Assembly (NCBI GenBank): GCA_964016885.1
Contig: OZ024751.1
Span: 20,770,001-20,834,000 of the forward strand
Direction: 5' to 3'
DNA length: 64,000 nucleotides
Origin: Eledone cirrhosa
Lineage: Eukaryota
In this document: positions 903-40,510 of the stretch, piece after piece
Numbering within the stretch: position 1 is the stretch's first letter
Layout: each line of letters starts with the position of its first letter
Notes under the pieces: generated by a model
Seen by the model: only the letters and a program-made list of their open reading frames with translations
What the model was told of the DNA's origin: nothing
The model's database searches: none
Program-made: the position numbers and the translations under genes

Positions 903-1278
903 ATTATTATTATTATTATTATTTATTATTATTATAACAATATCTATCTAGGGCGGGTAAAATTCCCGAGATCCATGGACGAGTTCTCTCCAGTGGTCTC
1001 TGTCCCTCATCATCGCTGCCATGTCCTGTGTCTCCAACAGACCAGTGTCTGTCCTTAGGGCATCAACATACGTTAACCTTGGTCTTCCTCTTCCAGTGTG
1101 TCCATGTAGGGGCTCCCACAGGAGCACTGAGTGCAATGTCAACTCTGGATGTCGGTGAGCATGTCCAGCTAACCTCACTCTCCTCTGTGTCACTTTTGAG
1201 AGGCTCCCATACAGCTCTGAGTTTTTCATCCTCAGTGTATACTGATTAATGTTCAGAGCCATCCTCAGCATTCTCGTG
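903..1278 (-). mobile_element. RTE-clade LINE, 3' end (RT C-terminus) with (TAA)n tail
   Basis: TRMLRMALN...RRVRLAGHAHRH...GRGRPRLTYVDAL...DRDHWRELV is a typical RTE C-terminus. Confidence 0.8.
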
Positions 1279-1406
1279 TCATATTTGGGGAGGGTTATAT
1301 TGTTATACCCATCCAGATGGTGGATGGGTATAACAATATGACCCTCTCCAAATATGACAATATTTGTTTCAACACACGATTTCATATAAAAACCCTTGCA
1401 AAACAA

Positions 1407-1407
<1 letters not shown>
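1277..1407 (+). mobile_element. PLE 3'-terminal fragment with a 39-bp-arm hairpin, related to the terminus of the 24.8-26.8 kb PLE
   Basis: Arms 1277-1315 and 1321-1359; the reverse complement matches 34825-34892 and 24830-24855. Confidence 0.65.
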
Positions 1408-1456
<49 letters not shown>

Positions 1457-1458
<2 letters not shown>

Positions 1459-1632
1459 TCGACCCCAGTACAGTACTGGATTGGACTAGAACATTATTTA
1501 ATGACGGTCTCGAAAGGATGAAAGGTAAAGTTGACCTTGGTAGGATTTGAACTCCCAGAGTGCAGCGAGCCGGAACGAATACCACAAATCATTTTACCCG
1601 ACGTTCTAACATCTCTGCCAAATTCACCGCCT
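1457..1632 (-). mobile_element. SINE S1, diverged copy
   Basis: aaggatgaaaggtaaagttgacctt...gatttgaactc. Confidence 0.8.
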
Positions 1633-3382: not shown

Positions 3383-3724
<342 letters not shown>

Positions 3725-3831
3725 CATGCATATATATGCATGTATATATTTATATATGTATATATTTATATATGTGTCAAGAAATAGCCTTCGAAACGGC
3801 TTGAGCTCTGCCGTCGGGGTTAAACTTTTTC

Positions 3832-3862
<31 letters not shown>

Positions 3863-4341: not shown

Positions 4342-4538
4342 TAACGAAGGAAATGTGGTAAGGAACCAGGTGGACCATAACGCACCAAAGTACTCAATAC
4401 TTGAGGTAGTAGAGTGGGTAATAGGAACCAGTAAGACCCCGACGGCTGAGCTCAAGCCGTTTCGACGGCTAATTCTGGACTCAGAATTAGCCGTCGAAAC
4501 GGCTTGAGCTCAGCTGTCGGGGTCTTACTGGTTCCTAT
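4342..4538 (-). mobile_element. Fold-back PLE-type terminus, family A
   Basis: Tail 4342-4420 and near-perfect palindrome 4421-4538 centred on ctggactcag. Confidence 0.75.
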
Positions 4539-4556
4539 ATATATATATATATATAT

Positions 4557-4741
4557 ACGTTAATCCGGGTTGAATCGGAGGTAACCACAGTAAGTAAGGT
4601 ACTCAATACATAGCAGAGTATAAAAGTTTTAATATAGATGAGATTCTACAGGACTAGAACTGTTTCATTCATTAGAAATCATCAGATGATTTCTAATGAA
4701 TGAAACAGTTCTAGTCCTGTAGAATCTCATCTATATTAAAA

Positions 4742-4744
<3 letters not shown>
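4557..4744 (-). mobile_element. Fold-back PLE-type terminus, family C, with HHR core
   Basis: Minus strand reads CTGATGA-tttc-taat-gaat-GAAA-cag..ctg-TA; palindrome apex at about 4684. Confidence 0.75.
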
Positions 4745-5238: not shown

Positions 5239-5276
<38 letters not shown>

Positions 5277-5397
5277 CTGGCCTTTATAACGTATGTTAAT
5301 TGCTCTGGTCTTCTTTTAGTCCATTGAGCGCTTGCCGCATATCTCGAAGATTGCATTTCGTTTTGTTTTTGACCCCCGCCGAAATACGATCTCGCTG

Positions 5398-5481
<84 letters not shown>

Positions 5482-5643: not shown

Positions 5644-5933
5644 TGCGAGAATGTCACCGCGTACTCGCAGCATCACTATGGAAACGTCTTGTTGAGTCAA
5701 ACTTAGCCAAGCGTTAATACTATCCACTACTCGGAGTACTCTAACTGGACTACATCTAAGTGGACTCCCTATAACGATAATTTGTTATCCCGTATATATA
5801 TATATGTAGAAGGTGAGTAATATTGTAGAACAATAAAACTATGTATATATCAAATAAGTAGCACTCAACAGTTGGTAGAACTGGAGTATATATTAAAGAA
5901 GAAATTAAAAGATGGTTAAAAAAGTTCCATATA

Positions 5934-5999
5934 TTTTATTATGCGCATTTCGAAAACAACATCATCCTGGGACAAAAATTGTGTTCTCATCAGATAAAA
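5934..5999 (-). ncRNA. Type I hammerhead ribozyme
   Basis: ttttat-CTGATGA-g..c-GAAA-tgcgca-TA-ataaaa. Confidence 0.8.
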
Positions 6000-6100
6000 T
6001 AAGGTAACATGATATGAAGCCTAAAAACACTTGTCAACAGGAAAGTGCAAAGTCTACATGTATTGACAAGTGTTTTTAGGCTTCATATAATGTTGCCTTA

Positions 6101-6166
6101 TTTTATCTGATGAGGACACAATTTTTGTCCCAGGATGATGTTGTTTTCGAAATGCGCATAATAAAA
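6101..6166 (+). ncRNA. Type I hammerhead ribozyme
   Basis: ttttat-CTGATGA-ggacac..ttttc-GAAA-tgcgca-TA-ataaaa; 6-bp stem I and palindromic stem-loop III. Confidence 0.8.
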
Positions 6167-6841
6167 TATATGGAACTTTTTTAACCATCTTTTAATTTCT
6201 TCTTTTATATGTGTGTCTGAATGTGTATGTGTCTGTATGTGTATGTGTCTGCGTGTGTATGTGTATGTGTGTCTGTATGTGTATGTGTCTGTATGTGTGT
6301 GTCTGTATCTGCATGTGTATGTGTCTGCGTGTGTATGTGTATGTGTGTCTGTATGTGTATGTGTCTGTATGTATGTCTATATGTGTCTGTGTCTGTGTGT
6401 GTCTGTATGGTATATAGCGTCGTCACCATCATCATACACAAACAGACACTCACACACACACACACACATATATATATATACATATGTACATATACCTATA
6501 TATATGTATATGTATACATATACAGACACACATACAAACACACACACTCTGTGCGTTTTTAACTCTTTAGAGAGTGTGTTCTGTGTGTGTGTGTCTGTGT
6601 GTGTCTGTATCTGGGCGTGTGTATGTGTGTGTGCGTGTGTGCGTGTGTGTGTGTGTCTGTGTGTCTGACAACTAATATATTGTGAAGTTGACCTAGTTAG
6701 ATTTTTTTAGAGCAATAAATAAATAAATAAATAAATAGGTGAATCAATAAATAAATGTTCAGCTAAACTTGTTTTCAGATCAGTTTCTTAAAAATAGCCC
6801 CAAATTAAGAAAAATGGGGGATTGTGTTTGAAAGAAGTCTC

Positions 6842-6905
<64 letters not shown>

Positions 6906-6911
<6 letters not shown>

Positions 6912-7100
6912 AAATAAGATGTGAAGACTAAAATTCGAAGAGGGTTCGATAAAGATAATATATATATATAAAATATATAAAACCGTAGAGCAAATATTTA
7001 TTAAAATAACAGATTAAAGTTTAAGCAAAGAATCGCTGCTTTCACCCTTATCCCGTTAAGGGTGAAAGCAGCGATTCTTTGCTCAAACTTTAATCTGTTA

Positions 7101-7108
<8 letters not shown>
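6906..7108 (-). mobile_element. Fold-back PLE-type terminus, family B
   Basis: Palindrome 6999-7108 centred on acccttatcccgttaagggt-GAAA; related copies at about 20725-20880, 24745-24800 and 29619-29819. Confidence 0.7.
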
Positions 7109-7134
<26 letters not shown>

Positions 7135-7137
<3 letters not shown>

Positions 7138-7280
7138 ATTGTTTCTACTTTTGGCACAAGGCCAGCAATGACTCAGTACATTACTGGTATTTTATTTTAT
7201 CGACCCTGTAAGGATGAAAGGCAAAGTTAACCTCGACGGGATTTGATCTCAGACCATAAAGGGACGTAACTATGCTAGAA
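7135..7280 (-). mobile_element. SINE S1
   Basis: Matches the family consensus seen across the window. Confidence 0.85.
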
Positions 7281-7581: not shown

Positions 7582-7834
7582 AATGAGACGTATAGAGATT
7601 GTTTTAGCGAGAAGCTAACGGCATTCTATAACATATATGCGACTATAACGTCAAGATGGGAAAAGTAGTTAACGAAAGATTTAGGAAAAATAACTCAAAC
7701 TCATCTCAAAAGAGAATCAGGATATAAATTCATCCACAGAATTTAGTAAAATCCATGGAAAAATCTATGGACCTTTAACTCATGATAAAACAAAGTCTGA
7801 AACACTTATCCTTCAATTTAGAATAACATCAAAT

Positions 7835-7916
7835 GCTCTGTATAGTCTTAAAAGACTATTTCATGAAAACTTTCAGTGGAGATGGTCACGGTTGGAATAT
7901 CATTCATCAGCAGAGC
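7835..7916 (-). ncRNA. Type I hammerhead ribozyme with full stem III
   Basis: gctctg-CTGATGA-atga..tcat-GAAA-tagtct-ttta-agacta-TA-cagagc; the host repeat 7580-7820 is homologous to 19612-19850. Confidence 0.85.
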
Positions 7917-12301: not shown

Positions 12302-12333
<32 letters not shown>

Positions 12334-12337
12334 GTGT

Positions 12338-12551
12338 TATAGGAACGAGTAGGACCCCGACGGCTGAGCTCAAGCCGTTTCAACGGCTAATTCTGGACTA
12401 AAATCGTTTTTAGTCCAAAATTAGCCGTCGAAACGGCTTGAGCTCAGCCGTCGGGGTCCTACTCGTTCCTATTACCCACTCTACTACCCTAAGTATTGAG
12501 TACTTTAGTGCGTTATGGTCCACCTGGTTCCTTACCACATTTCCTTCGTTA
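12338..12551 (+). mobile_element. Fold-back PLE-type terminus, family A, with the longer central hairpin
   Basis: Palindrome 12339-12472 with apex ggactaaaa-tcgt-ttttagtcc. Confidence 0.75.
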
Positions 12552-12558
12552 TATGTGT

Positions 12559-12671
12559 TATATATAGAAATGACTTCTACGGGACTACAATTGTTTGATT
12601 CGTGTGAAATCATCAGAAATGTTTCATACGAATGAAACAGTTTTAGTCCTGTAAAAGTTATTTCTATATAA
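12559..12671. mobile_element. Diverged family C fold-back with degenerate HHR
   Basis: gaaatcatcag...gaatgaaacagttttagtcctgta. Confidence 0.6.
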
Positions 12672-13426
12672 TATAGTGAGACCTGGGCATTGTGTGCAGA
12701 GGATATACGCAGACTAGAGAGGAACGAAGCTTGCATGCTCCGCTGGATGTGTAACAGTAATATACGTGAACGGCAAAGCATAAACGAACTAAGGAAAAAA
12801 TTAGAGATAAGAGGGATCAGATGTTGTTTACTCGAGAGAAGGCTGCGTTGGTATGGACACGTGATGCGCATGAAAGTCGATAGCTGTATAACAAAGTGCA
12901 GGGCAATAAAGATAGACGGTAGCCACGGAATAGGCAGACCTAGAAAAACATGGGATGAGCTGATAAACTCCGACCTCACACACTTACACCTCTCCAAGAC
13001 AATGTCACTGGACCGAGACCTTTGGCGGTACTCAGTAACAGAGAAGACCCGCCTTGCCAGTAGGCATCTCTAACAAAATACACCCCGTCCCGCCACCACC
13101 CCCACCCCATCCACACCACCCCGTTCTATGTAAAGTTATGTTGGTGCCGCGCCATCCAGGCCGAAACAAATGAGATTGTGTAGGTGTCACGACAAAAAAA
13201 CACACAGTCCACGCTGTAATGTGGCCGTGTAGGCAACACGGTAAAAACCTCCCAGACCCACACTGTAAATGTGGTTGGTGTTAGGAAGGGCATCCAACTG
13301 TAGAAAACCTGCCAGACAGTCCTATGCGAGCAAGACAATCACTCTTGCCTCAAGTGGGACTACCCCCGTCCAAACCCATGCAAGCGTGGAACACGGACGT
13401 TAAACGTTGATGATGATGATGATGAT
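12672..13426 (+). mobile_element. RTE-clade LINE 3' end with 3' UTR and (GAT)n tail
   Basis: SETWAL...LERNEACMLRWMC...RRLRWYGHVMRM...GRPRKTWDE...DRDLWR. Confidence 0.9.
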
Positions 13427-13507
13427 AATAAATATGCCTCTACTCTACCAACGTATTGAGTACCTTTTTTAACTGTGGTTACCCCCCGACACAGCTCGTG
13501 AATCTAC

Positions 13508-13694
13508 ACGGTGGATTGGCAGTATCGGTAGAGGGTCGGACGCCATGCTTTCCAGCATAGTTACGTCCCTTTACGATCTGAGTTCAAATCCCGCCGAGGT
13601 TGACTTTGCCTTTCATCCTTACGGGGTCGATAAAATAAAGTACCAGTAATGCACTGGGTAATTGCTGGCCTTGTGACTAAAGTAGAAACAATTA
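13508..13694 (+). mobile_element. SINE S1, near full length
   Basis: A-box tggcagtatcgg, B-box gagttcaaatcc, and a central domain gcctttcatccttacggggtcgataaaataaagtaccag resembling the Meta/MESC SINE domain (from memory). Confidence 0.9.
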
Positions 13695-19612: not shown

Positions 19613-19949
19613 ATGAAAAATATAGAAAACACTGCAGCGAAAAGCCAACAACACTCCATAATATATAAGTGACTATAGCGTCAAAATGGGAAAAATAGTT
19701 AACGTAAGATGTGGGAAAAATAATTCAAACTCATCTCAAAGAGAATCAGGATATAGATTCATCCACAGAATTTAGTGAAATCCAGGGAAAAATCAATAGA
19801 GCCTTAACTCATGATAAAATAAAGTTTAAAATACTCATCCTTCAATTTGGAAAAAAATGTGTATATATATATATACATATATATACACATATATATACAT
19901 ATGTATATATATATATATATACATATATATACACATATATATACATATG

Positions 19950-20615: not shown

Positions 20616-20873
20616 ATAATAATTGTTTCTACTTTAGGCACAAGGCCAGATATTACCCAGTGCATTACTGGTACTTTATTTTATAAACCCCGTAAAGATG
20701 AAAGGCAAAGTCAACCTCGGCGAATAAATGTGACGACTAAAATCCAAAGAGGGCTCGATAAGGATACATATATATCAAATATATAGGAACCCTAGAGCAA
20801 ATATTTATTTTAGTATCAGAAGATCCCATTAAGTGTGAAAGCAGCAATTCTTTGCTTAAACTTTAATCTGTTA

Positions 20874-20938
<65 letters not shown>

Positions 20939-21019
20939 AAAAATTGAACGGGAACAAAACAGAGAGGCAGTACGAACAAAGGTTTATTAGTTTCACGCTC
21001 TTGAGAGTGAGGTGGTGGT

Positions 21020-21065
<46 letters not shown>

Positions 21066-21066
<1 letters not shown>

Positions 21067-21176
21067 TGAGCTCAGCCGTCGGGGTCCTACTCGTTCCTAT
21101 TACCCACTCTACTACCCTAAGTATTGAGTACTTTGGTGCGTTATGGTCCACCAGGTTCCTTACCACATTTCCTTCG

Positions 21177-21180
<4 letters not shown>
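21066..21180 (+). mobile_element. Family A terminus without fold-back
   Basis: Near-identical to the 3' part of 12338-12551, embedded in (TA)n. Confidence 0.8.
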
Positions 21181-21274
<94 letters not shown>

Positions 21275-21456
21275 GGTTGCAGGTAAATGCGTCCGTAGGC
21301 GGTATGCCGGTGGACCACTCGAAGCTCGCGCAGAGCAGAGTATATTATTATAGATAACGAGGAATCAGTAATGCTTCAAACCACAATTTATTACATATGT
21401 TTCTGCGTCGTTCGGCTCGAGGCAGGATCTGTTACCGATCGAACCTGACTCTGCAT

Positions 21457-21487
<31 letters not shown>

Positions 21488-21613
21488 GTAGGAGGTGAGT
21501 TTTATTGTAGTACAATAAAGCAATGCAGATATCGGATAAGAAGCACTCTACAGTTTGTGGGACTGGAGTATGCATAATATAAGATCAAAAGATGGTTAAA
21601 GGAGTTCAATATA

Positions 21614-21680
21614 TTTTATTATGCGCATTTCAAAAACAAACATCATCAAACAATAATATTTGTGTTTTCATCAGATAAAA
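21614..21680 (-). ncRNA. Type I hammerhead ribozyme
   Basis: Reverse complement of 24382-24448. Confidence 0.8.
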
Positions 21681-22877
21681 CAGAACATGATATGAAGGCT
21701 AAAAAAACACTTGTTGATAGTGCAGTTTTAAATCAACATATGAAAAGTGGTTTTAGATTGATGTGTGATATTGGGAAAAATATTTTATTTAGAGAGGGGG
21801 GGAGAGAAAAGGATGAAAAGGGAAGGAGATGAGAGGGAGAGATGGGTGATAGAGAGAAAGAGATAGTTTTTATAACTGAGAGGAGATATATTTTATATAG
21901 AGGGGTTGAAAACCGTTGGAAGATACTGTATAAATTAAAAATTTTGAAAATTAACGAAGGGAGGATATGTGCGAGGAAAAAATATATTATATTTAGGGAG
22001 GGGTGGGGGTGGAAAGGATGAAAAAAAGGGGAGGAGATGAGAGTGAAGGTGGAAAGGGAGAGATGGGTGATAGAGAGAAAGAGATAGTTTTTATAACTGA
22101 GAAAAAGATATAATGTTTTAATATAGAGAGGTTGGGAACCGTTGGAAGATAATGTATAAATTAAAGGAATTTGAAAATTAACGAAGGGAAATTATGTATG
22201 GAGATAGAGAGAAAAAAATAACGAAGGGAAATTATGTATGGAGATAGAGAGAAAAAAATAATAATTGTGGGTGAATATTCTAACGTCAAAAGAAGAAATG
22301 TAGGAATTTTAAAATTAGCAAAGAGAAAAAGTTTATGTGTAGAAGGATTTGAGAAAAATAATGTGAAGTTAAAGTTTTTATATTGAATTCATATGTATTA
22401 ATAATGAGTTCGTTGATGGGGAGAAAAAAATAATAATAAATTAAGGATGAAATTGAGATTTAAAAGATTTATGATAGAGAGAAAAAATAATAATGATTGC
22501 GGATGAATACTCAAAATGTCAAAAACAAATGTTATTGTTTTACGAGGAGATATAATGAGGGTGATGAGTAAACGGGTATTATAGAGTGTATAATGCCCTT
22601 TAAAGTAAGGTAGATGGGTATATTTTAAAGAATATATGAGTATATATTAAAAAAAATATATAATAATAAATTAAGGATGAAATTGAGATTAAAAAGATTT
22701 ATGATAGAGGGAAAAAAAATAATAATGATTGCGGATGAATATTCAAAATGTCAAAAAACAAATGTTATTGTTTTACGAGAAGATAGGATGAGGGTAATGA
22801 GTAAACGAGTATTATAGAGTGTATAATGCCCTTTAAAGTAAGGTAGATGGGTATATTTTAAAGAGGTGTATGTATGA

Positions 22878-23144
22878 ATATTCAAACTTAAAAGAACTAA
22901 CACTGCTCTCTCAGAACTCATATGGTCCTTAAAAGACAAAAACATTAAATATAACATCTTTTGGAAAAAGATTTCTTCTGCATCCTCGTACTTGAACAGC
23001 TCTCTATCTAAAATCTGTAATCTCTGCCTAAATGAAAAATTTACCATTATCTCTAACCTAGAATCCATAATAAATAGACGCTCGGATTTGTTTTCCATCT
23101 GCCTGCATAAATTCCATAGAACTTTTCACAAAGTATACAGTTAA
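22878..23144 (+). pseudogene. PLE GIY-YIG endonuclease C-terminal fragment (Naiad-like)
   Basis: Hand translation: NTALSELIWSLKDKNIKYNIFWKKISSASSY...CNLCLNEKFTII...INRRSDLFSICLHK; absent from the ORF track. Confidence 0.8.
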
Positions 23145-24381
23145 TATTCAATTCTTTATCAATTTAGAATCTTTTCTCAAAGGCACATATACATACACTT
23201 CTTTAAAATATACCCATCTACCTTACTTTAAAGGGCATTATACACTCTATAATACTCGTTTACTCATTACCCTCATCCTCTCTTCTCGTAAAACAATAAC
23301 ATTTGTTTTTGACATTTTGAATATTCATCCGCAATCATTATTATTTTTTTCCCTCTATCATAAATCTTTTTAATCTCAATTTCATCCTTAATTTATTATT
23401 ATATATTTTTTTTAATATATACTCATATATTCTTTAAAATATACCCATCTACCTTACTTTAAAGGGCATTATACACTCTATAATACCCGTTTACTCATCA
23501 CCCTCATTATATCTCCTCGTAAAACAATAACATTTGTTTTTGACATTTTGAGTATTCATCCGCAATCATTATTATTTTTTCTCTCTATCATAAATCTTTT
23601 TAATCTCAATTTCATCCTTAATTTATTATTATTTTTTTCTCCCCATCAACGAACTCATTATTAATACATATGAATTCAATATAAAAACTTTAACTTCACA
23701 TTATTTTTCTCAAATCCTTCTACACATAAACTTTTTCTCTTTGCTAATTTTAAAATTCCTACATTTCTTCTTTTGACGTTAGAATATTCACCCACAATTA
23801 TTATTTTTTTCTCTCTATCTCCATACATAATTTCCCTTCGTTATTTTTTTCTCTCTATCTCCATACATAATTTCCCTTCGTTAATTTTCAAATTCCTTTA
23901 ATTTATACATTATCTTCCAACGGTTCCCAACCTCTCTATATTAAAACATTATATCTTTTTCTCAGTTATAAAAACTATCTCTTTCTCTCTATCACCCATC
24001 TCTCCCTTTCCACCTTCACTCTCATCTCCTCCCCTTTTTTTCATCCTTTCCACCCCCACCCCTCCCTAAATATAATATATTTTTTCCTCGCACATATCCT
24101 CCCTTCGTTAATTTTCAAAATTTTTAATTTATACAGTATCTTCCAACGGTTTTCAACCCCTCTATATAAAATATATCTCCTCTCAGTTATAAAAACTATC
24201 TCTTTCTCTCTATCACCCATCTCTCCCTCTCATCTCCTTCCCTTTTCATCCTTTTCTCTCCCCCCCTCTCTAAATAAAATATTTTTCCCAATATCACACA
24301 TCAATCTAAAACCACTTTTCATATGTTGATTTAAAACTGCACTATCAACAAGTGTTTTTTTAGCCTTCATATCATGTTCTG

Positions 24382-24448
24382 TTTTATCTGATGAAAACAC
24401 AAATATTATTGTTTGATGATGTTTGTTTTTGAAATGCGCATAATAAAA
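24382..24448 (+). ncRNA. Type I hammerhead ribozyme
   Basis: ttttat-CTGATGA-aaacac..gttttt-GAAA-tgcgca-TA-ataaaa. Confidence 0.8.
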
Positions 24449-24591
24449 TATATTGAACTCCTTTAACCATCTTTTGATCTTATATTATATATATATATAT
24501 ATATAGTAAAAAATTGAACGGGAACAAAACAGAGAGGCAGTACGAACAAAGGTTTATTAGTTTAGTTTCACGCACCTGAGAGTGGGGTGGT

Positions 24592-24650
<59 letters not shown>

Positions 24651-24982
24651 CAAAATAAATGAACAAAACCCAGGAGGCAAATGTAGTTGTATATGAATAT
24701 GGGCTGAAAAAAAAAAATATATATATATATCAACCCATATATATATAAGGTTGAAAGCACCGATTCTTTGCTTAAACTTTAATCTGTTATTTTAATAAAT
24801 AAATATATATATATATATAAATATATATATATTGTTATACTTTGGGAGGGTCATGTTGCCAATAAGAAACACACGCACCAGTTGCTTTCACTTCAATTTA
24901 TTATGATATATTTATAAATTTAGGAATTTATAAATTTCCGGTTGGTTGGTTGGTTCCACAACCAGTTGGTTGTTTATATATT

Positions 24983-25025
24983 GTCAAAGTTCTTTCGTCA
25001 CACATTCTGTGACCTCTTCAGTGAC
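24983..25025 (-). ncRNA. Minimal hammerhead ribozyme in the PLE pseudo-LTR
   Basis: gtca-CTGAAGA-g-gtcaca-gaatg-tgtgac-GAAA-gaac-TT-tgac. Confidence 0.8.
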
Positions 25026-25221
25026 TGGGGGTTCTTTTCTTTGTTTTTTGTGCCTCTCCTTTGTTCTGTCCTACGCTATCTTGTTTTTGTGTGTGTGGTG
25101 TGCTTAGTTTGCGCATGTGTTACATCCGGGAGTCTGTGTGTGTTTATATTCGTTTATTTATTTGTTTATTTACATGTTACTGGTTGGTTGTTTGTTCTAT
25201 GTGTGTGTTTTCATTTTGTCC

Positions 25222-26725
25222 TTAATTGTAAGTTGTGATGTTGCTGTTCCACTCATGTTCTCTATTTAATTTTGGTTGTAATTCATTTATGTTTATTACC
25301 TCTGTGATTTGTCTAAACATTGCGTCTTTTCTGTGTGTAGATTCTATTTTTATTTCTATGTTCTCTAATTTACCCTTATGTTCTATTTTAGCATGTTGGT
25401 AGAGTACAGATGATTCTTTACTATCTTGAAGGTCTCGCCAGTGTTCATTTATCCGTTCCCCTATACTACGAGCCGTCTCACCTATGTACACTATATTTTT
25501 ATCTCTACAATGTCCTTCAGTACATCTTATGCTATATACTACATTTCTAGTTTTACAGTTAATATGGGGGCTTAATTTACAGATTATACATTTCTTATCT
25601 ATACAGGGAGGTCTTTGAAAAGGCTATGTCTTGCTAATAAGTGTTTTTATAGAGGTACATGGTCTTTCTACTATCTTAATATTGAGTTTATATTTATCTA
25701 GGGCCCTTCTAAATTTGTAAGCTAATTCACCTCTAGGGGTTGTATCGATGAACATTACACTCTGGTATTTATTGCTATCATACCATGAGTTTATTCTATT
25801 AGCCTTATTCCTAGTTCTTTCTATTCTATTCCAAAATTTGCTCCTATACAAGGGTCAGGTCCCATTTGTATCATTATTTACCATTTTTTTCCCATTTGGT
25901 TCTGGCTCCTCTATATACTCTGATTTTATCTCTCTGATTGTAACCAGAGAACTGCATACGGTGGATGAAGTGTTGTATGTGTCTCTCTAGTTCTTCGGGG
26001 TTGCACATGCGTGACACGTTTCTCATCACCCGTACCAAATTCGCAATCAGTATGTTGATTTTGGTGTGATCCGAAACACCTGAGTTTCGGTGAATCATAT
26101 ATTTGGAAGTCATTGGTTTGGCATAATGGGAACGGAGGATTTGTTTTTTGTTATTAATGGTATCTAACCGGAGCTCTGTGTCTAGTACAGGTAATCGATG
26201 GTTGGGGTGTTTGCTTGGGTAGTCTATAGTAACTCTAATACTCTGGTGGATGGAGTTAGCTATTTGCTGGATGCTTTCCATTGTGTTTTTCTCTAATTCC
26301 TGACTGTTCTCTAGTGGGGGTGTTTTAACTACGATGTTTATATCATCAACGTAGCGGGAGTACATTATCAGGGTTAAGGGGACTTCTAATTGTTCTTTAA
26401 GTTTAAGTTTAACTCTACTGTCCCACCATACCATGAATAAGTTAGATATGTCGCCTGCAATGCTAACACCAATGGCTGCTCCCTCCTCTTGGGCATATGT
26501 TTTTCCATTAAATTTGAACATATGTTCCATAGGGGTTAATTTTATGCTGGCCCCCACCGCATGTGCAATCATTTTCTTTAGTTCATCGTGGTTTTCGGGG
26601 GTCCGTATGGCTCTGGTCCACACGTTCCATCTATCTGTGTGGGTTTTCTTGGCCATTGAGGTAATGGTAGGTGGTCGGCCTCTTGCTGGTCTTGTAGGGC
26701 ACAGGTTGCTAAGGAGGCAGACCAC
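25222..26725 (-). pseudogene. Disrupted PLE RT/GIY-YIG ORF
   Basis: ORFs 25874-26725, 25624-25851 and 25222-25491 join through one frameshift in an A-run and two in-frame stops. Confidence 0.9.
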
Positions 26726-26762
26726 CTACCATAACCATTTAAGTGTTTTTGTGTTGTAGTTC

Positions 26763-27362
<600 letters not shown>

Positions 27363-27832: not shown

Positions 27833-28118
27833 TTGGTTAAGAGAGTGGGACTGGCTTTGTGCAGTGCCTTTGCTCACTATAAAAGCTTCACGGCACAGGC
27901 ATTGCTTTATATCTGGAGATCTCCCTGCACTTGTCGTCACATGGTACCATGGGCCCAGCACTAAGTGTCAATAATTGTCACAGGTGTAGTGTTTGTACCA
28001 GAGTTTTCAAGTCGCTGGCTGGACTAAAAAGTCACACTCGTTCAGCGCATCGGTAGGGGTTCTCCTACATGGATATAAAGTAGTGGCCGTACTCGAAAAC
28101 GAGTTGGCAGCCACCACC
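27833..28118 (+). mobile_element. Second, shorter copy of the (ATGT)n-flanked retroposon
   Basis: Matches about 2642-2925. Confidence 0.7.
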
Positions 28119-28859: not shown

Positions 28860-29376
28860 ACTTGACTGGTACTTTATTTTATCGACCCCGTAAGGATGAA
28901 AGGCAAAGTTAACCTCGGCGGGATTTAAACTCAGACTGTAAAGGGACGTAACTATGCTAGAAAGCATGGCGTCCGACCCTCTACCGATACTGCCAATTCA
29001 CCGAATGAATATAATGGTTTGTAACTCGCCGGGATTTGAACTCGAAACGTAAAGTAGCATAACCATATGCATGCCACAAGGTATTCTATCCAACGCTCTA
29101 ATCCACCACCCTAATAATTGTTTCTTTTTTTGTCACAAGTCCAACAATTATCTCAGTGCATTACTGGTACTTTATTTTATCGACCCCGTAAGAATGAAAG
29201 GCAAAGTTAACCTCGGCAGGATTTGAAATCAGAATGTAAAGGGCCCTAACTCTATGTTACGAAGCCTATTGTCCAATGCTCTGCCAATCCCTCGTCCTTG
29301 GACAATAGTAATAATTGTTTCTACTTTTGACACAAGGCCAGCAATTATCTCAGTACATTACTGGTACTTCATTTTA
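28860..29376 (-). mobile_element. Cluster of about 4 SINE S1 copies and fragments
   Basis: Repeated family motifs. Confidence 0.85.
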
Positions 29377-29540
29377 TATTGTGAAGTTGACCTAGTTAGA
29401 TTTTTTTAGAGCAATAAATAAATAAATAAATAAATAGGTGAATCAATAAATAAATGTTCAGCTAAACTTGTTTTCAGATCAGTTTCTTAAAAATAGCCCC
29501 AAATTAAGAAAAATGGGGGATTGTGTTTGAAAGTAGTCTC

Positions 29541-29624
<84 letters not shown>

Positions 29625-29960
29625 AAATAAGATGTGAAGACTAAAATTCGAAGAGGGTTCGATAAAGATAATATATATATAAAATATATAAAACCGTAGA
29701 GCAAATATTTATTAAAATAACAGATTAAAGTTTAAGCAAAGAATCGCTGCTTTCACCCTTATCCCGTTAAGGGTGAAAGCAGCGATTCTTTGCTTAAACT
29801 TTAATCTGTTATTTTAATATATATATATATATATATAATAATTGTTTCTACTTTTGGCACAAGGCCAGCAATGACTCAGTACATTACTGGTATTTTATTT
29901 TATCGACCCTGTAAGGATGAAAGGCAAAGTTAACCTCGGCGGGATTTGAACTCAGACCGT
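29375..29960 (+). repeat. Duplicate of the composite segment at about 6678-7260
   Basis: Near-identical unique sequence + TA run + family B hairpin + SINE. Confidence 0.9.
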
Positions 29961-30603
29961 AAAGGGCCGTAACTCTATGCTGCAAAGCATGGCGCCCGAC
30001 CCTCTACCAACACTGCCCTACTGTATAATAACATAATAAATCTACAGTTTATACACATAAAAAAATAGTTTTGTGTGTGTTCATGTCTGTTTGTGGGTGT
30101 GTGTATGAGTGTGTTTGTTTATATGTAAGTGTGTGTGTGTTTGGAAATGACCATAAATGGCCGTGTGAGTATGTATACGTTTGTGCGCGTGTGTGTGTTT
30201 GGAAGTGGCCAAAAAAGGCCGTGTGTGTACGTATATGTTTGTGCGTGTGTGTGTCTGTGCGTGTGTGTTTATGTGTAAATGCGTGTGTGTGTGTGTTTGG
30301 AAATGGCCAAAAATGGCGGTTACTCCAGAAATGTAATTGCTTCAGTTTCGACACACGGTCTCAGATGAAGGTTTCTTGCCAAACATCTAAGTAGTAATAA
30401 GTAAAAGGTCAGAAATATAAGCCATGAGATAATAGGAGAAAAACTGTTGGAAATTTACCAAAGAATTTCTCTTTAGAAAGAAATGTTAAACATATTTTGG
30501 AATTGTCCATCTTGAAGGTTTTATTCCCAAGTTTGTTATCTCATTAAAAAAGCCAGCTTCAGGTGAAATAACAATTCCGTGTTGCTTCTGTTTTATATGC
30601 CAC

Positions 30604-34274: not shown

Positions 34275-34625
34275 TAAACGGAATAGAAAATGCTGACAAA
34301 TTGTTCACAGTGAAAAATAGTTTAATTAGGAATAAGTGAGAATTAGTAATAGTATTGGTTAGTATTCAGTTTTGGTTTTAAGTTTTACCGGTTGCGCATT
34401 TCTAATGCTTTTCAAAAATAATTTTGAGATAGAGCGTCCGTGATGTTTGCTCTGATCTATATATATATATAGTAATAATAGTAATAATAATAAAATTGAA
34501 ATATTAAAGAGTTAAACAAGATTCAATGAGTACATCAAAGAATGAGTTTTACAGTAGATTGGAAGCACTCTACAAGTAAATATTTTCCAGAGGTAACAAA
34601 ATAGATGTTCTTGTGATCAATTAAA

Positions 34626-34689
34626 TTTTATTATACATATTTCAGAGGTACTTGAATCAGGTTCAACAGTACGTCCTCATCAGATAAAA
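34626..34689 (-). ncRNA. Type I hammerhead ribozyme in a fold-back terminus (about 34490-34745)
   Basis: ttttat-CTGATGA-ggacgtac..gtacctct-GAAA-tatgta-TA-ataaaa. Confidence 0.75.
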
Positions 34690-34753
34690 TCAAATTATTT
34701 TATCAATAAAATTTAATTGATCACAAGAACATCTATTTTGTTAATATTTGAAT

Positions 34754-34810
<57 letters not shown>

Positions 34811-34813
<3 letters not shown>

Positions 34814-35012
34814 GCTTTTTAATTTGTTTTGCGAGATTTCTTATCTGAAATCGTGTGTTGAAACAGATATTGTTATAATTTGGGAGGGTCATGGCGCCAA
34901 TAAAAACACACGCACCTGTTGGTTGGTTGGTTGGTTCGATAACCGGATGGTTGTCTATATATTGTCAAAGCTCTTTCGTCACACATTCTGTGACCTCTTC
35001 AGTGACTAGGTT
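34811..35012 (-). mobile_element. Solo terminus of the 24.8-kb PLE family with HHR at 34964-35006
   Basis: gtca-CTGAAGA-ggtcacagaatgtgtgac-GAAA-gagc-TT-tgac. Confidence 0.8.
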
Positions 35013-35030
35013 TTTTATTCTGTCTCTATG

Positions 35031-40270: not shown

Positions 40271-40275
<5 letters not shown>

Positions 40276-40315
40276 ATATTAACAAATGGAATCTATATTT
40301 ATAAAACCATATTTA

Positions 40316-40376
40316 TTTCATTATACATATTTCAAGGACACCAAAGCAAATTATGGTGCGCTTTCATCAGATAAAA
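40316..40376 (-). ncRNA. Type I hammerhead ribozyme, family F
   Basis: ttttat-CTGATGA-aagcgcacca..tggtgtcctt-GAAA-tatgta-TA-atgaaa. Confidence 0.75.
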
Positions 40377-40510
40377 TATAATATAGATCAGTTTTATAAA
40401 CAAATATTGACATACCCTTAAAGAATGCGACCATGTCAGTTGGAAGCTCCCTTTATATCAGTTATAAAAATATTTGCTTGTTGTATCCCAACAAATTAAA
40501 TATAACTTCT

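Follow-up and report, generated by a model that had tools for sequence, protein, structure and literature searches.

We analysed a window of 64,000 nucleotides from Eledone cirrhosa (GenBank assembly GCA_964016885.1, contig OZ024751.1, positions 20,770,001 to 20,834,000 of the forward strand); all coordinates below are those of the window. At 21488-24488 lies a 3-kb palindrome, almost certainly a non-autonomous, and likely young, fold-back stub of a Penelope-like element (PLE) of the Hydra clade. It starts behind a (TA)n target microsatellite (21461-21487) with an 86-bp 3' tail on the minus strand (21488-21573), which belongs to the inverted copy only and aligns to the tail of a related mini-element at 5806-5889. 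There follow the left arm (21574-22875, minus strand), an inverted, 5'-truncated copy of a 3' untranslated region (UTR), and a spacer of 313 bp (22876-23188, plus strand). The latter is the additional 5' reach of the sense copy and comprises the end of an open reading frame (ORF) and the first 44 nt of the UTR. The right arm (23189-24488, plus strand) is the sense 3' UTR without the tail. The target microsatellite resumes at 24486-24505, where the end of the arm is overlapped by TAT. The original prediction for this locus, made from the bare letters, was of near-identical arms, a spacer of about 310 bp and a tail of about 87 bp at the left arm only. Alignment bore this out, the tail having 87 bp when a shared T is counted; the end of the left arm had been set at 22876, one base off.

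By local alignment the two arms are 99.6% identical over 1302 columns. They differ by three substitutions (22461, 22784 and 22865) and two one-base indels in A-runs (22712 and 22753), and the outer 887 bp are identical. All five differences are located in the inner third (22461-22865 versus 23199-23601), four of them in the inner 165 bp (Kolmogorov-Smirnov p 0.008). Three internal duplications are mirrored in both arms. In right-arm coordinates these are a pair with a period of 230-231 bp and 93% identity, followed by a degenerate third piece (23187-23408/23417-23638), a 40-bp duplication with two copies that are 100% identical (23801-23880), and an older pair of about 220 bp with 81% identity (23865-24082/24092-24286). 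Two of them had been predicted; the 40-bp unit was exact, the longer period is 230-231 bp and not about 240. A description of the whole UTR as a single 230-bp array was rejected, units 4-5 aligning to units 1-3 no better than shuffles. The 3' UTR after the stop codon has 1344 nt, and its longest ATG-started frame is 16 amino acids (aa). Together with the tail it amounts to 1.43 kb, lengthened by the internal duplications. If the arms began identical and if the octopus rate of 0.0036 substitutions per site per million years (PMC13282606) holds, three substitutions in 1300 bp would date the insertion to about 0.3 million years. A target-site duplication is unreadable inside (TA)n. A 78-bp direct repeat (20916 and 24486) was considered as such and dismissed: other insertions intervene and a third copy exists at 46863.

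The spacer encodes on the plus strand a peptide of 88 aa (22878-23141) which has no start codon and terminates with TAA (23142-23144). Every motif quoted for it in the original prediction was found in this frame. A phmmer scan yielded 1722 proteins at E<=1e-3 (best 3e-13). Among the best 150 matches, 139 had the pattern CxxC..EK and 94 had N..CxH; a CCHH-type pattern was present in none. Ten of the matches were looked up individually. The cluster of one holds 697-aa proteins in which reverse transcriptase (RT) motifs are followed by an endonuclease (EN); these align to the spacer peptide at 37% identity (E 4e-17). A search with the EN region of a 697-aa protein gave 284 matches, of which 120 were listed, 73 of those with at least 640 aa. 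Among these 73 long relatives RT preceded the EN CxxC in 72 of the 72 that could be scored. DK[TS] was present in 72, the CxC..CP linker in 69, the RWK-type motif [RK]W[KR] in 63, and a DKA string somewhere in 15. The C-terminal run behind CxxC..E[KR] spans 33-51 aa in the long relatives versus 34 aa in the spacer peptide. On a profile of 703 positions, built from the 72 long relatives below 800 aa, the spacer peptide occupies positions 621-695 (E 2e-18). From frame, protein searches and the text of Fig. S2/S7 in PMC8557442, 22878-23144 is read as the last 88 codons and the stop codon of a Hydra-clade RT-EN ORF. By alignment, the peptide is the extreme C-terminus of the polyprotein; the GIY-YIG core and the RT are absent. 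The predicted PLE endonuclease fragment thus stood up to the phmmer relatives and to the 697-aa RT-EN proteins alike. The predicted autonomous PLE did not: because only positions 621-695 of 703 were kept, the stub is non-autonomous and cannot make RT. Pfam had no match for two 697-aa relatives and gave a sub-threshold GIY-YIG in two of the ten phmmer matches. An Atlas look-up returned unnamed clusters at 0.90-0.93 and was uninformative. No further pieces of a Hydra ORF were found within the 64-kb window.

Downstream of the stop codon, on the same strand, is a putative type I hammerhead ribozyme motif with a short palindromic stem III (24381-24449, plus strand). Cleavage is predicted after 24442, i.e. 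46 nt before the end of the arm. Its mirror image is at 21613-21681 on the minus strand (predicted cleavage after 21620). The search pattern was our own, and the slack in stem II was relaxed after the motif had been seen by eye. It detected one motif per arm, in the large element and in the mini-element at 5806-6210, and 15 motifs in the window versus 0.08 per shuffle (maximum 1 in 60 shuffles). For motif counts the shuffles permuted 2-nt chunks in blocks of 500 or 1000 bp and are not exact dinucleotide shuffles. When the structure was written by hand onto a MAFFT alignment of seven related copies, 111 of 111 cells were paired and two-sided changes had occurred at 6 of 16 pairs; controls with slid partners paired at 35-64%. 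The covariation score was reached in 0 of 500 shuffles, a control which ignores relatedness. Unconstrained folding returned stems I and II in the large element; the mini-element did not adopt the hammerhead fold. Short palindromic stems III are also seen in metazoan hammerheads that are thought to act as dimers (PMC4209133). The hammerhead has the same sense as the ORF. This identifies the right arm as the 3' UTR and the left arm as its inversion, with the 86 bp as the tail of the PLE.

To which PLE clade does the stub belong? Hydra-clade elements are described as having a C-terminal EN, CxxC and CxH flanking a conserved E and N, a canonical hammerhead and (TA)n targets (Craig 2021, PMC8557442; statements on published work refer, here and below, to those portions of the sources that were covered). 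Further traits are RWK, DKT, a CxCX5C linker, the lack of CCHH and a length generally under 3 kb (PMC8557442). In the stub, the EN fragment is C-terminal, CxxC stands before E and CxH after N, and a hammerhead is predicted near the 3' end. By eye, the Hydra rows of Fig. S2/S7 agree with the spacer peptide motif for motif (PMC8557442). In the same figures CxxC and CxH are absent in Penelope/Poseidon, Nematis and Neptune, and CxxC is absent in Naiad. The spacer peptide has both, which speaks against Penelope/Poseidon, Neptune and Nematis, where the C-terminal EN lacks them. Insertion into (TA)n is common to Hydra and Naiad, hence it does not discriminate. In view of these data the element is almost certainly the tail end of a Hydra-clade PLE, consisting of two head-to-head, 5'-truncated copies in (TA)n. 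A full-length parent would measure about 3.6 kb, with an ORF of 2.1 kb and the UTR of 1.43 kb. Six short motifs of the window had no match in the text of the PMC8557442 supplement. The family is absent from the part of that supplement which was searched and is hence, as judged from sequence, apparently a new member of the Hydra clade.

In a BLASTN search of the window, the large element had a single other match, the mini fold-back at 5806-6210 (E 8e-56). It is composed of a tail (5806-5889, minus strand), two arms (5890-6037 and 6063-6210) and a 25-nt spacer, with a hammerhead motif in both arms; hammerhead, tail and boundary are as in the large element. Compared with the last 230 nt or so of the latter it is 79% identical (186 identities, 31 mismatches, 18 gap columns), which by sequence makes it a sister subfamily. 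Neither this similarity nor that between the arms is anywhere near chance. The proposed relationship was thus real; the large element to which the mini-element had been tied is not autonomous. The mini-element is centred where the UTR of the large element has a natural hairpin, albeit a weak one, equalled by 16 of 500 shuffles. It probably does not represent a family that propagates itself; a side product of the same integration process is the more likely reading.

Masked self-comparison disclosed many small hairpins in (TA)n across the window, and 14 were examined. Ten carry a one-sided tail of 57-95 nt which opens with RCTC. The other four were not used, 26912 being tail-less, 34472 irregular in its right arm, and 41036 and 47490 furnished with short extensions that lack the motif. 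Each of ten two-ended copies tested possesses exactly one tail, and the tail-less end is -1 to 5 nt from RCTC (shared TA counted); nine of the ten are independent, 6907 and 29620 being apparently part of a local duplication. Hairpins with this layout form five families, A to E, of which D and E are related; of family D the window contains one mini-element only. Family A (3386-3586, 4344-4535, 12333-12552, 21067-21180, 3776-3836) has hairpins with tails of 74-80 nt and also single-ended pieces with and without a tail. Its three hairpins have three different centres, all in a hammerhead-like stem II. The minis therefore look like separate abortive insertions, not like one mobile unit. Family B (4568-4743, 46433-46640, 12574-12673, 13442-13490) has hairpins with tails of 57-66 nt, centred at the hammerhead core or stem I, and one solo tail cut by a high-copy repeat. 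Tails of 93-95 nt characterize family C (6907-7105, 29620-29816, 20708-20878, 24748-24801); its first two copies are in matching blocks (6676-7276 and 29375-29981), apparently the local duplication. Family E and another D-like copy (45177-45563, 40272-40510, 45732-46173, 54153-54338, 34472-34760) are akin to the large element by hammerhead and tail. In copies 40272 and 45732 an antisense arm is joined to the last 55-65 nt of the tail only, with no inverted overlap. A further family has a tail stem-loop (5274-5401, 41564-41791), one copy apparently being a solo tail with a (TA)n run on either side. In 5806 and 45177 the tail-bearing piece extends beyond its partner; in the large element, 40272, 45732 and 20708 it falls short. 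Altogether, 21 hairpin pieces resembling miniature inverted-repeat transposable elements (MITEs) cover 6908 bp, about 11% of the window. Two hairpins without the tail motif have one-sided extensions of 36 and 15 nt (41036-41363 and 47490-47685). Another at 26912-27361 is symmetric and tail-less, with TA at both ends and a high-copy repeat in its centre between apparent 10-bp direct repeats; this may be a true MITE.

The tail of the large element contains a predicted stem-loop (21543-21569, minus strand) made up of RCTC, an inner stem, a 2-nt bulge and GAGY. It starts 4 nt beyond the point at which the tail-less arm ends. A search pattern that includes the pairing had 12 matches in the window versus 0.4 per shuffle (maximum 2). 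Nine were in the source elements and three were new: two are situated 97-100 nt before a (TA)n run, the third is the family B tail interrupted by the high-copy repeat. Stem pairs were counted by anchoring, MAFFT having misaligned the short stems. Inner pairs 1-3 pair by construction, and vary across families among C-G, U-A, A-U, G-U and G-C; the outer pair, left free by the pattern, was A-U or G-C in 12 of 12. At the published ends of six Hydra elements, judged by eye, RCTC/GAGY is present in Hydra-2_Amil and Hydra-2_Ajap. Hydra-1_Crog has a variant with one mismatch, Hydra-1_Amil is doubtful, and Hydra-1_Obim and Hydra-1_Ajap, which apparently end before the tail, have none. The motif was not found in an adjoining PLE of another clade, nor was a description of it found in the open-access papers that were searched. 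Tentatively, and at somewhat less than even odds, we suggest that RCTC-stem-loop-NN-GAGY at the opening of the 57-95-nt tails is a conserved cis-element of the Hydra clade which sets an internal RT start a few bases upstream, and that priming from two ends generates the many MITE-like hairpins. If true, this would make the motif the priming signal of the clade, and such genomes would contain many 'MITEs' that are in fact by-products of retrotransposons.

How might such a structure arise? Our preferred explanation is that the stub of a Hydra PLE was likely written in a single integration event in which both nicked strands primed RT; we assign it a probability of about 0.75. The purified PLE protein of the anole was shown to nick AT-rich DNA on both strands and to extend both, with RT starting at two sites which bound the tail (Frangieh 2024, PMC11167929). 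Along these lines a full-length parent elsewhere would supply the RNA and the RT-EN protein, and the GIY-YIG nuclease would nick both strands of (TA)n. The top strand would prime at the end of the tail and be extended by about 1388 nt; for the bottom strand, priming would take place at an internal UA immediately upstream of the tail stem-loop, with extension by about 1610 nt. Both syntheses would stop early and their ends be joined, the joint bearing a snap-back of 5 nt. The short hairpins of the window could represent the same reaction when it breaks off after 50-200 nt, in many cases with the joint at natural stem-loops such as stem II of the hammerhead. Under such a two-primer model each insertion should have one tail, the end without a tail should be fixed, and either piece may be the longer one. 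All three were observed. In 40272 and 45732 the tail piece has its start at the 3' strand of the stem-loop or directly behind it, as though RT had stalled there (two cases only). At the head-to-head junction of the large element is a perfect 10-bp palindrome (22875-22884), possibly a 5-nt snap-back filler; perfect arms of at least 5 nt occur at 3 of 1612 centres of the sense piece. Ser precedes the Phe, here at 22881, in 169 of 199 relatives tallied, which fits with a filler at 22875-22879. A 13-nt match between the junction and 22735 was dismissed, being at odds with the joint as observed.

The chief rival is self-priming of the same Hydra element, favoured together with EN resolution by authors working on PLEs (PMC3846280; PMC8557442). 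There, a complete palindrome results when a single cDNA or antisense template folds back on itself, and EN later removes the tail from one end. The junction palindrome, the main argument in its favour, is equally predicted by this model, and the centres on hairpins speak for it: those of families A and C are in an apparent hammerhead stem II by eye, and that of the mini-element is on the weak UTR hairpin. However, the spacer is sense and continuous with the tail-less arm, and folding of that strand leaves the tail without a template. Self-priming also needs a further deletion of 305 bp in the centre, and it is not in line with copies 40272 and 45732, in which an antisense arm meets part of a tail and inverted overlap is absent. 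We regard self-priming as improbable, at about one chance in five, and two-primer synthesis as somewhat more likely than not. Several observations weigh against our interpretation as a whole. The clustering of arm differences in the inner third, which may be due to conversion, polishing or chance, is unexplained by priming from two strands, and the in vitro data on both strands stem from another clade (Poseidon) with a tail of 30-40 nt. The Hydra placement uses 88 aa and RNA features, the element itself holding no RT sequence. Pfam did not match the spacer peptide; of two word-index protein searches with it one gave 110 candidates, none at E<=0.001, and the other no candidate. F and T.LS are 6 aa apart in the peptide versus 8 in 199 of 201 relatives, and 2 aa are inserted before CxxC. 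Rfam reported no hammerhead in the window at gathering score, nor any in 23100-24520 when the limit was set to E<=5; the hammerhead is called from our own pattern and covariation, and its cleavage is a prediction. As to the tail motif, a pattern using sequence only had 19 matches (shuffles: mean 7.7, maximum 20 in 200) and is not clearly above chance. The stem-loop was part of the minimum-energy fold in 6 of 9 motif-bearing tails (not in 3507, 4568 and 46433), with weak z-scores of -1.95 to +0.27.

The remaining readings fare considerably worse. A fold-back artefact of sequencing or assembly would account for arms with 99.6% identity, outer 887 bp without a difference and two homopolymer indels among five differences. 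Yet the inversion stops at the boundary of the element, the flanks sharing only the microsatellite in inverted orientation. The end has the same position relative to the tail motif in the 79% relative and in four other families, the arms differ by three substitutions, and the tail is one-sided; we consider an artefact very unlikely. Only marginally less unlikely is a DNA transposon of foldback or MITE type with a captured PLE fragment, or else two separate head-to-head insertions or a later inverted duplication. In favour of these are the long inverted arms, the TA flanks and the fact that several insertions are piled up here in (TA)n runs. But the arms consist of UTR that belongs to the PLE itself and runs on from the stop codon, and the ends of the element are not inverted owing to the one-sided 86-bp tail. 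One tail was found in all ten tested copies, (TA)n is lacking at the central joint, and the varying centres within family A are at odds with a MITE copied whole as a fixed unit. The Naiad assignment of the original prediction has become extremely improbable. A (TA)n target, an inverted copy and a one-sided tail do occur in Naiads (PMC8557442). Their EN is at the N-terminus upstream of RT, with CCHH and CX2-5CxxC fingers, their RT has CxC, DKA and IFD, and canonical hammerheads are lacking (PMC8557442). Here, EN ends the ORF and is followed by TAA, UTR and a canonical type I hammerhead motif, so the domain order contradicts; CxxC, missing before E in the Naiad EN rows of Fig. S2 (PMC8557442), and CxH are Hydra-specific, and the best 150 phmmer matches were devoid of the CCHH-type pattern. 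The selenocysteine trait of some Naiad families, in-frame UGA in place of Cys codons, which had been suggested for checking, was not found in the fragment: its Cys codons are TGT, TGC and TGC, the stop is TAA and there is no in-frame TGA. An Rfam scan of 23100-24520 gave no family for a selenocysteine insertion sequence (SECIS), with no dedicated SECIS search being run.

The surroundings are rich in other repeats, and 20700-24900 is a pile-up of insertions in TA repeats. Immediately adjoining the element is a second 5'-truncated PLE of another clade with a broken frame (24833-26760, minus strand). It has a Pfam RVT_1 match (E 5e-4), a C-terminal GIY-YIG (E 1.2e-4), a Cys-rich linker with a CCHH-like layout and a hammerhead motif with its core at 25021. 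By its motifs it may be Neptune- or Nematis-like. A copy of its 3' end is at about 34820-35025, and a hairpin at 1277-1406 matches the end of that copy. Short solo pieces between (TA)n runs, to the left and right of the element (20936-21018, 24506-24593, 46863-46941 and 21268-21460), are probably the ends of other retroelements. Two more hammerhead motifs (7836-7910, minus strand; 53915-53995, plus strand) are unrelated to the hairpin families. The region 7606-7829 has a 77% copy at 19636-19858, and a 283-bp repeat (2643-2925 and 27834-28116, 97.5% identity) ends in (TATG)n. A repeat of about 185 bp resembling short interspersed elements (SINEs) is found at 13509-13692 and some 20 other sites (24 BLAST matches in the window); it may be similar to octopus SINEs. 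Frames at 948-1493 (minus strand), 12672-13073, 47692-48324 and 57639-57923 (all plus strand) resemble C-terminal pieces of non-LTR retrotransposons, presumably RTE-like and restriction-endonuclease-like; Pfam had no match for these four.

The standard layout of PLEs includes an inverted 5'-truncated copy adjoining the 5' end, and one end bears a tail (PMC8557442; PMC3846280). The insertion itself is ordinary, both its clade and its layout being already described and only the family new. What makes it valuable is the clean genomic record of PLE integration that it offers. The ORF stub fixes polarity and clade for hairpin elements that encode no protein, and the ends of the hairpins suggest priming at two fixed sites and offer a candidate signal in the RNA. 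It is also a caution, as 3' ends of PLEs can be taken for MITEs in repeat libraries. Closest are the Hydra-clade elements Penelope-13_HM and Hydra-1_Obim, with a C-terminal EN bearing T.LS..[IV]W.LK, CxxC..EK and N..R..CxH, a canonical type I hammerhead near the 3' end and a (TA)n target; the consensus of Penelope-13_HM carries an inverted truncated copy of 966 nt (nt 1-966; PMC8557442). Peptide and hammerhead of Hydra-1_Obim differ by eye from those of the stub, six Hydra consensus sequences have a 3' UTR of a few hundred nt versus 1.43 kb including the tail here, and the PLE tails described measure 30-40 nt versus 86 nt. The proposed route has its nearest parallel in PAc/Poseidon_Ac of Anolis (PMC11167929), where the target is AT-rich, both strands are extended, two RT starts bound the tail and RT starts at a stem-loop with a hammerhead upstream. 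In contrast, this element is of the Penelope/Poseidon clade, its 30-40-nt tail overlaps the ORF start in the pseudo-LTR (pLTR), and its stem-loop is AC-rich where the stub has RCTC/GAGY. Naiads share the (TA)n preference, the inverted truncated copy and the one-sided tail, whereas in their N-terminal CCHH-type EN and the lack of a canonical hammerhead they differ from the stub throughout (PMC8557442). Finally, the non-LTR retrozymes (10.64898/2026.07.22.740005; PMC4209133) are likewise non-coding and PLE-related and have type I hammerheads with a short palindromic helix III. They are, however, head-to-tail tandem units, whereas the element described here is head-to-head, with a one-sided tail and one hammerhead per inverted arm, and the three hairpins of family A have different centres.

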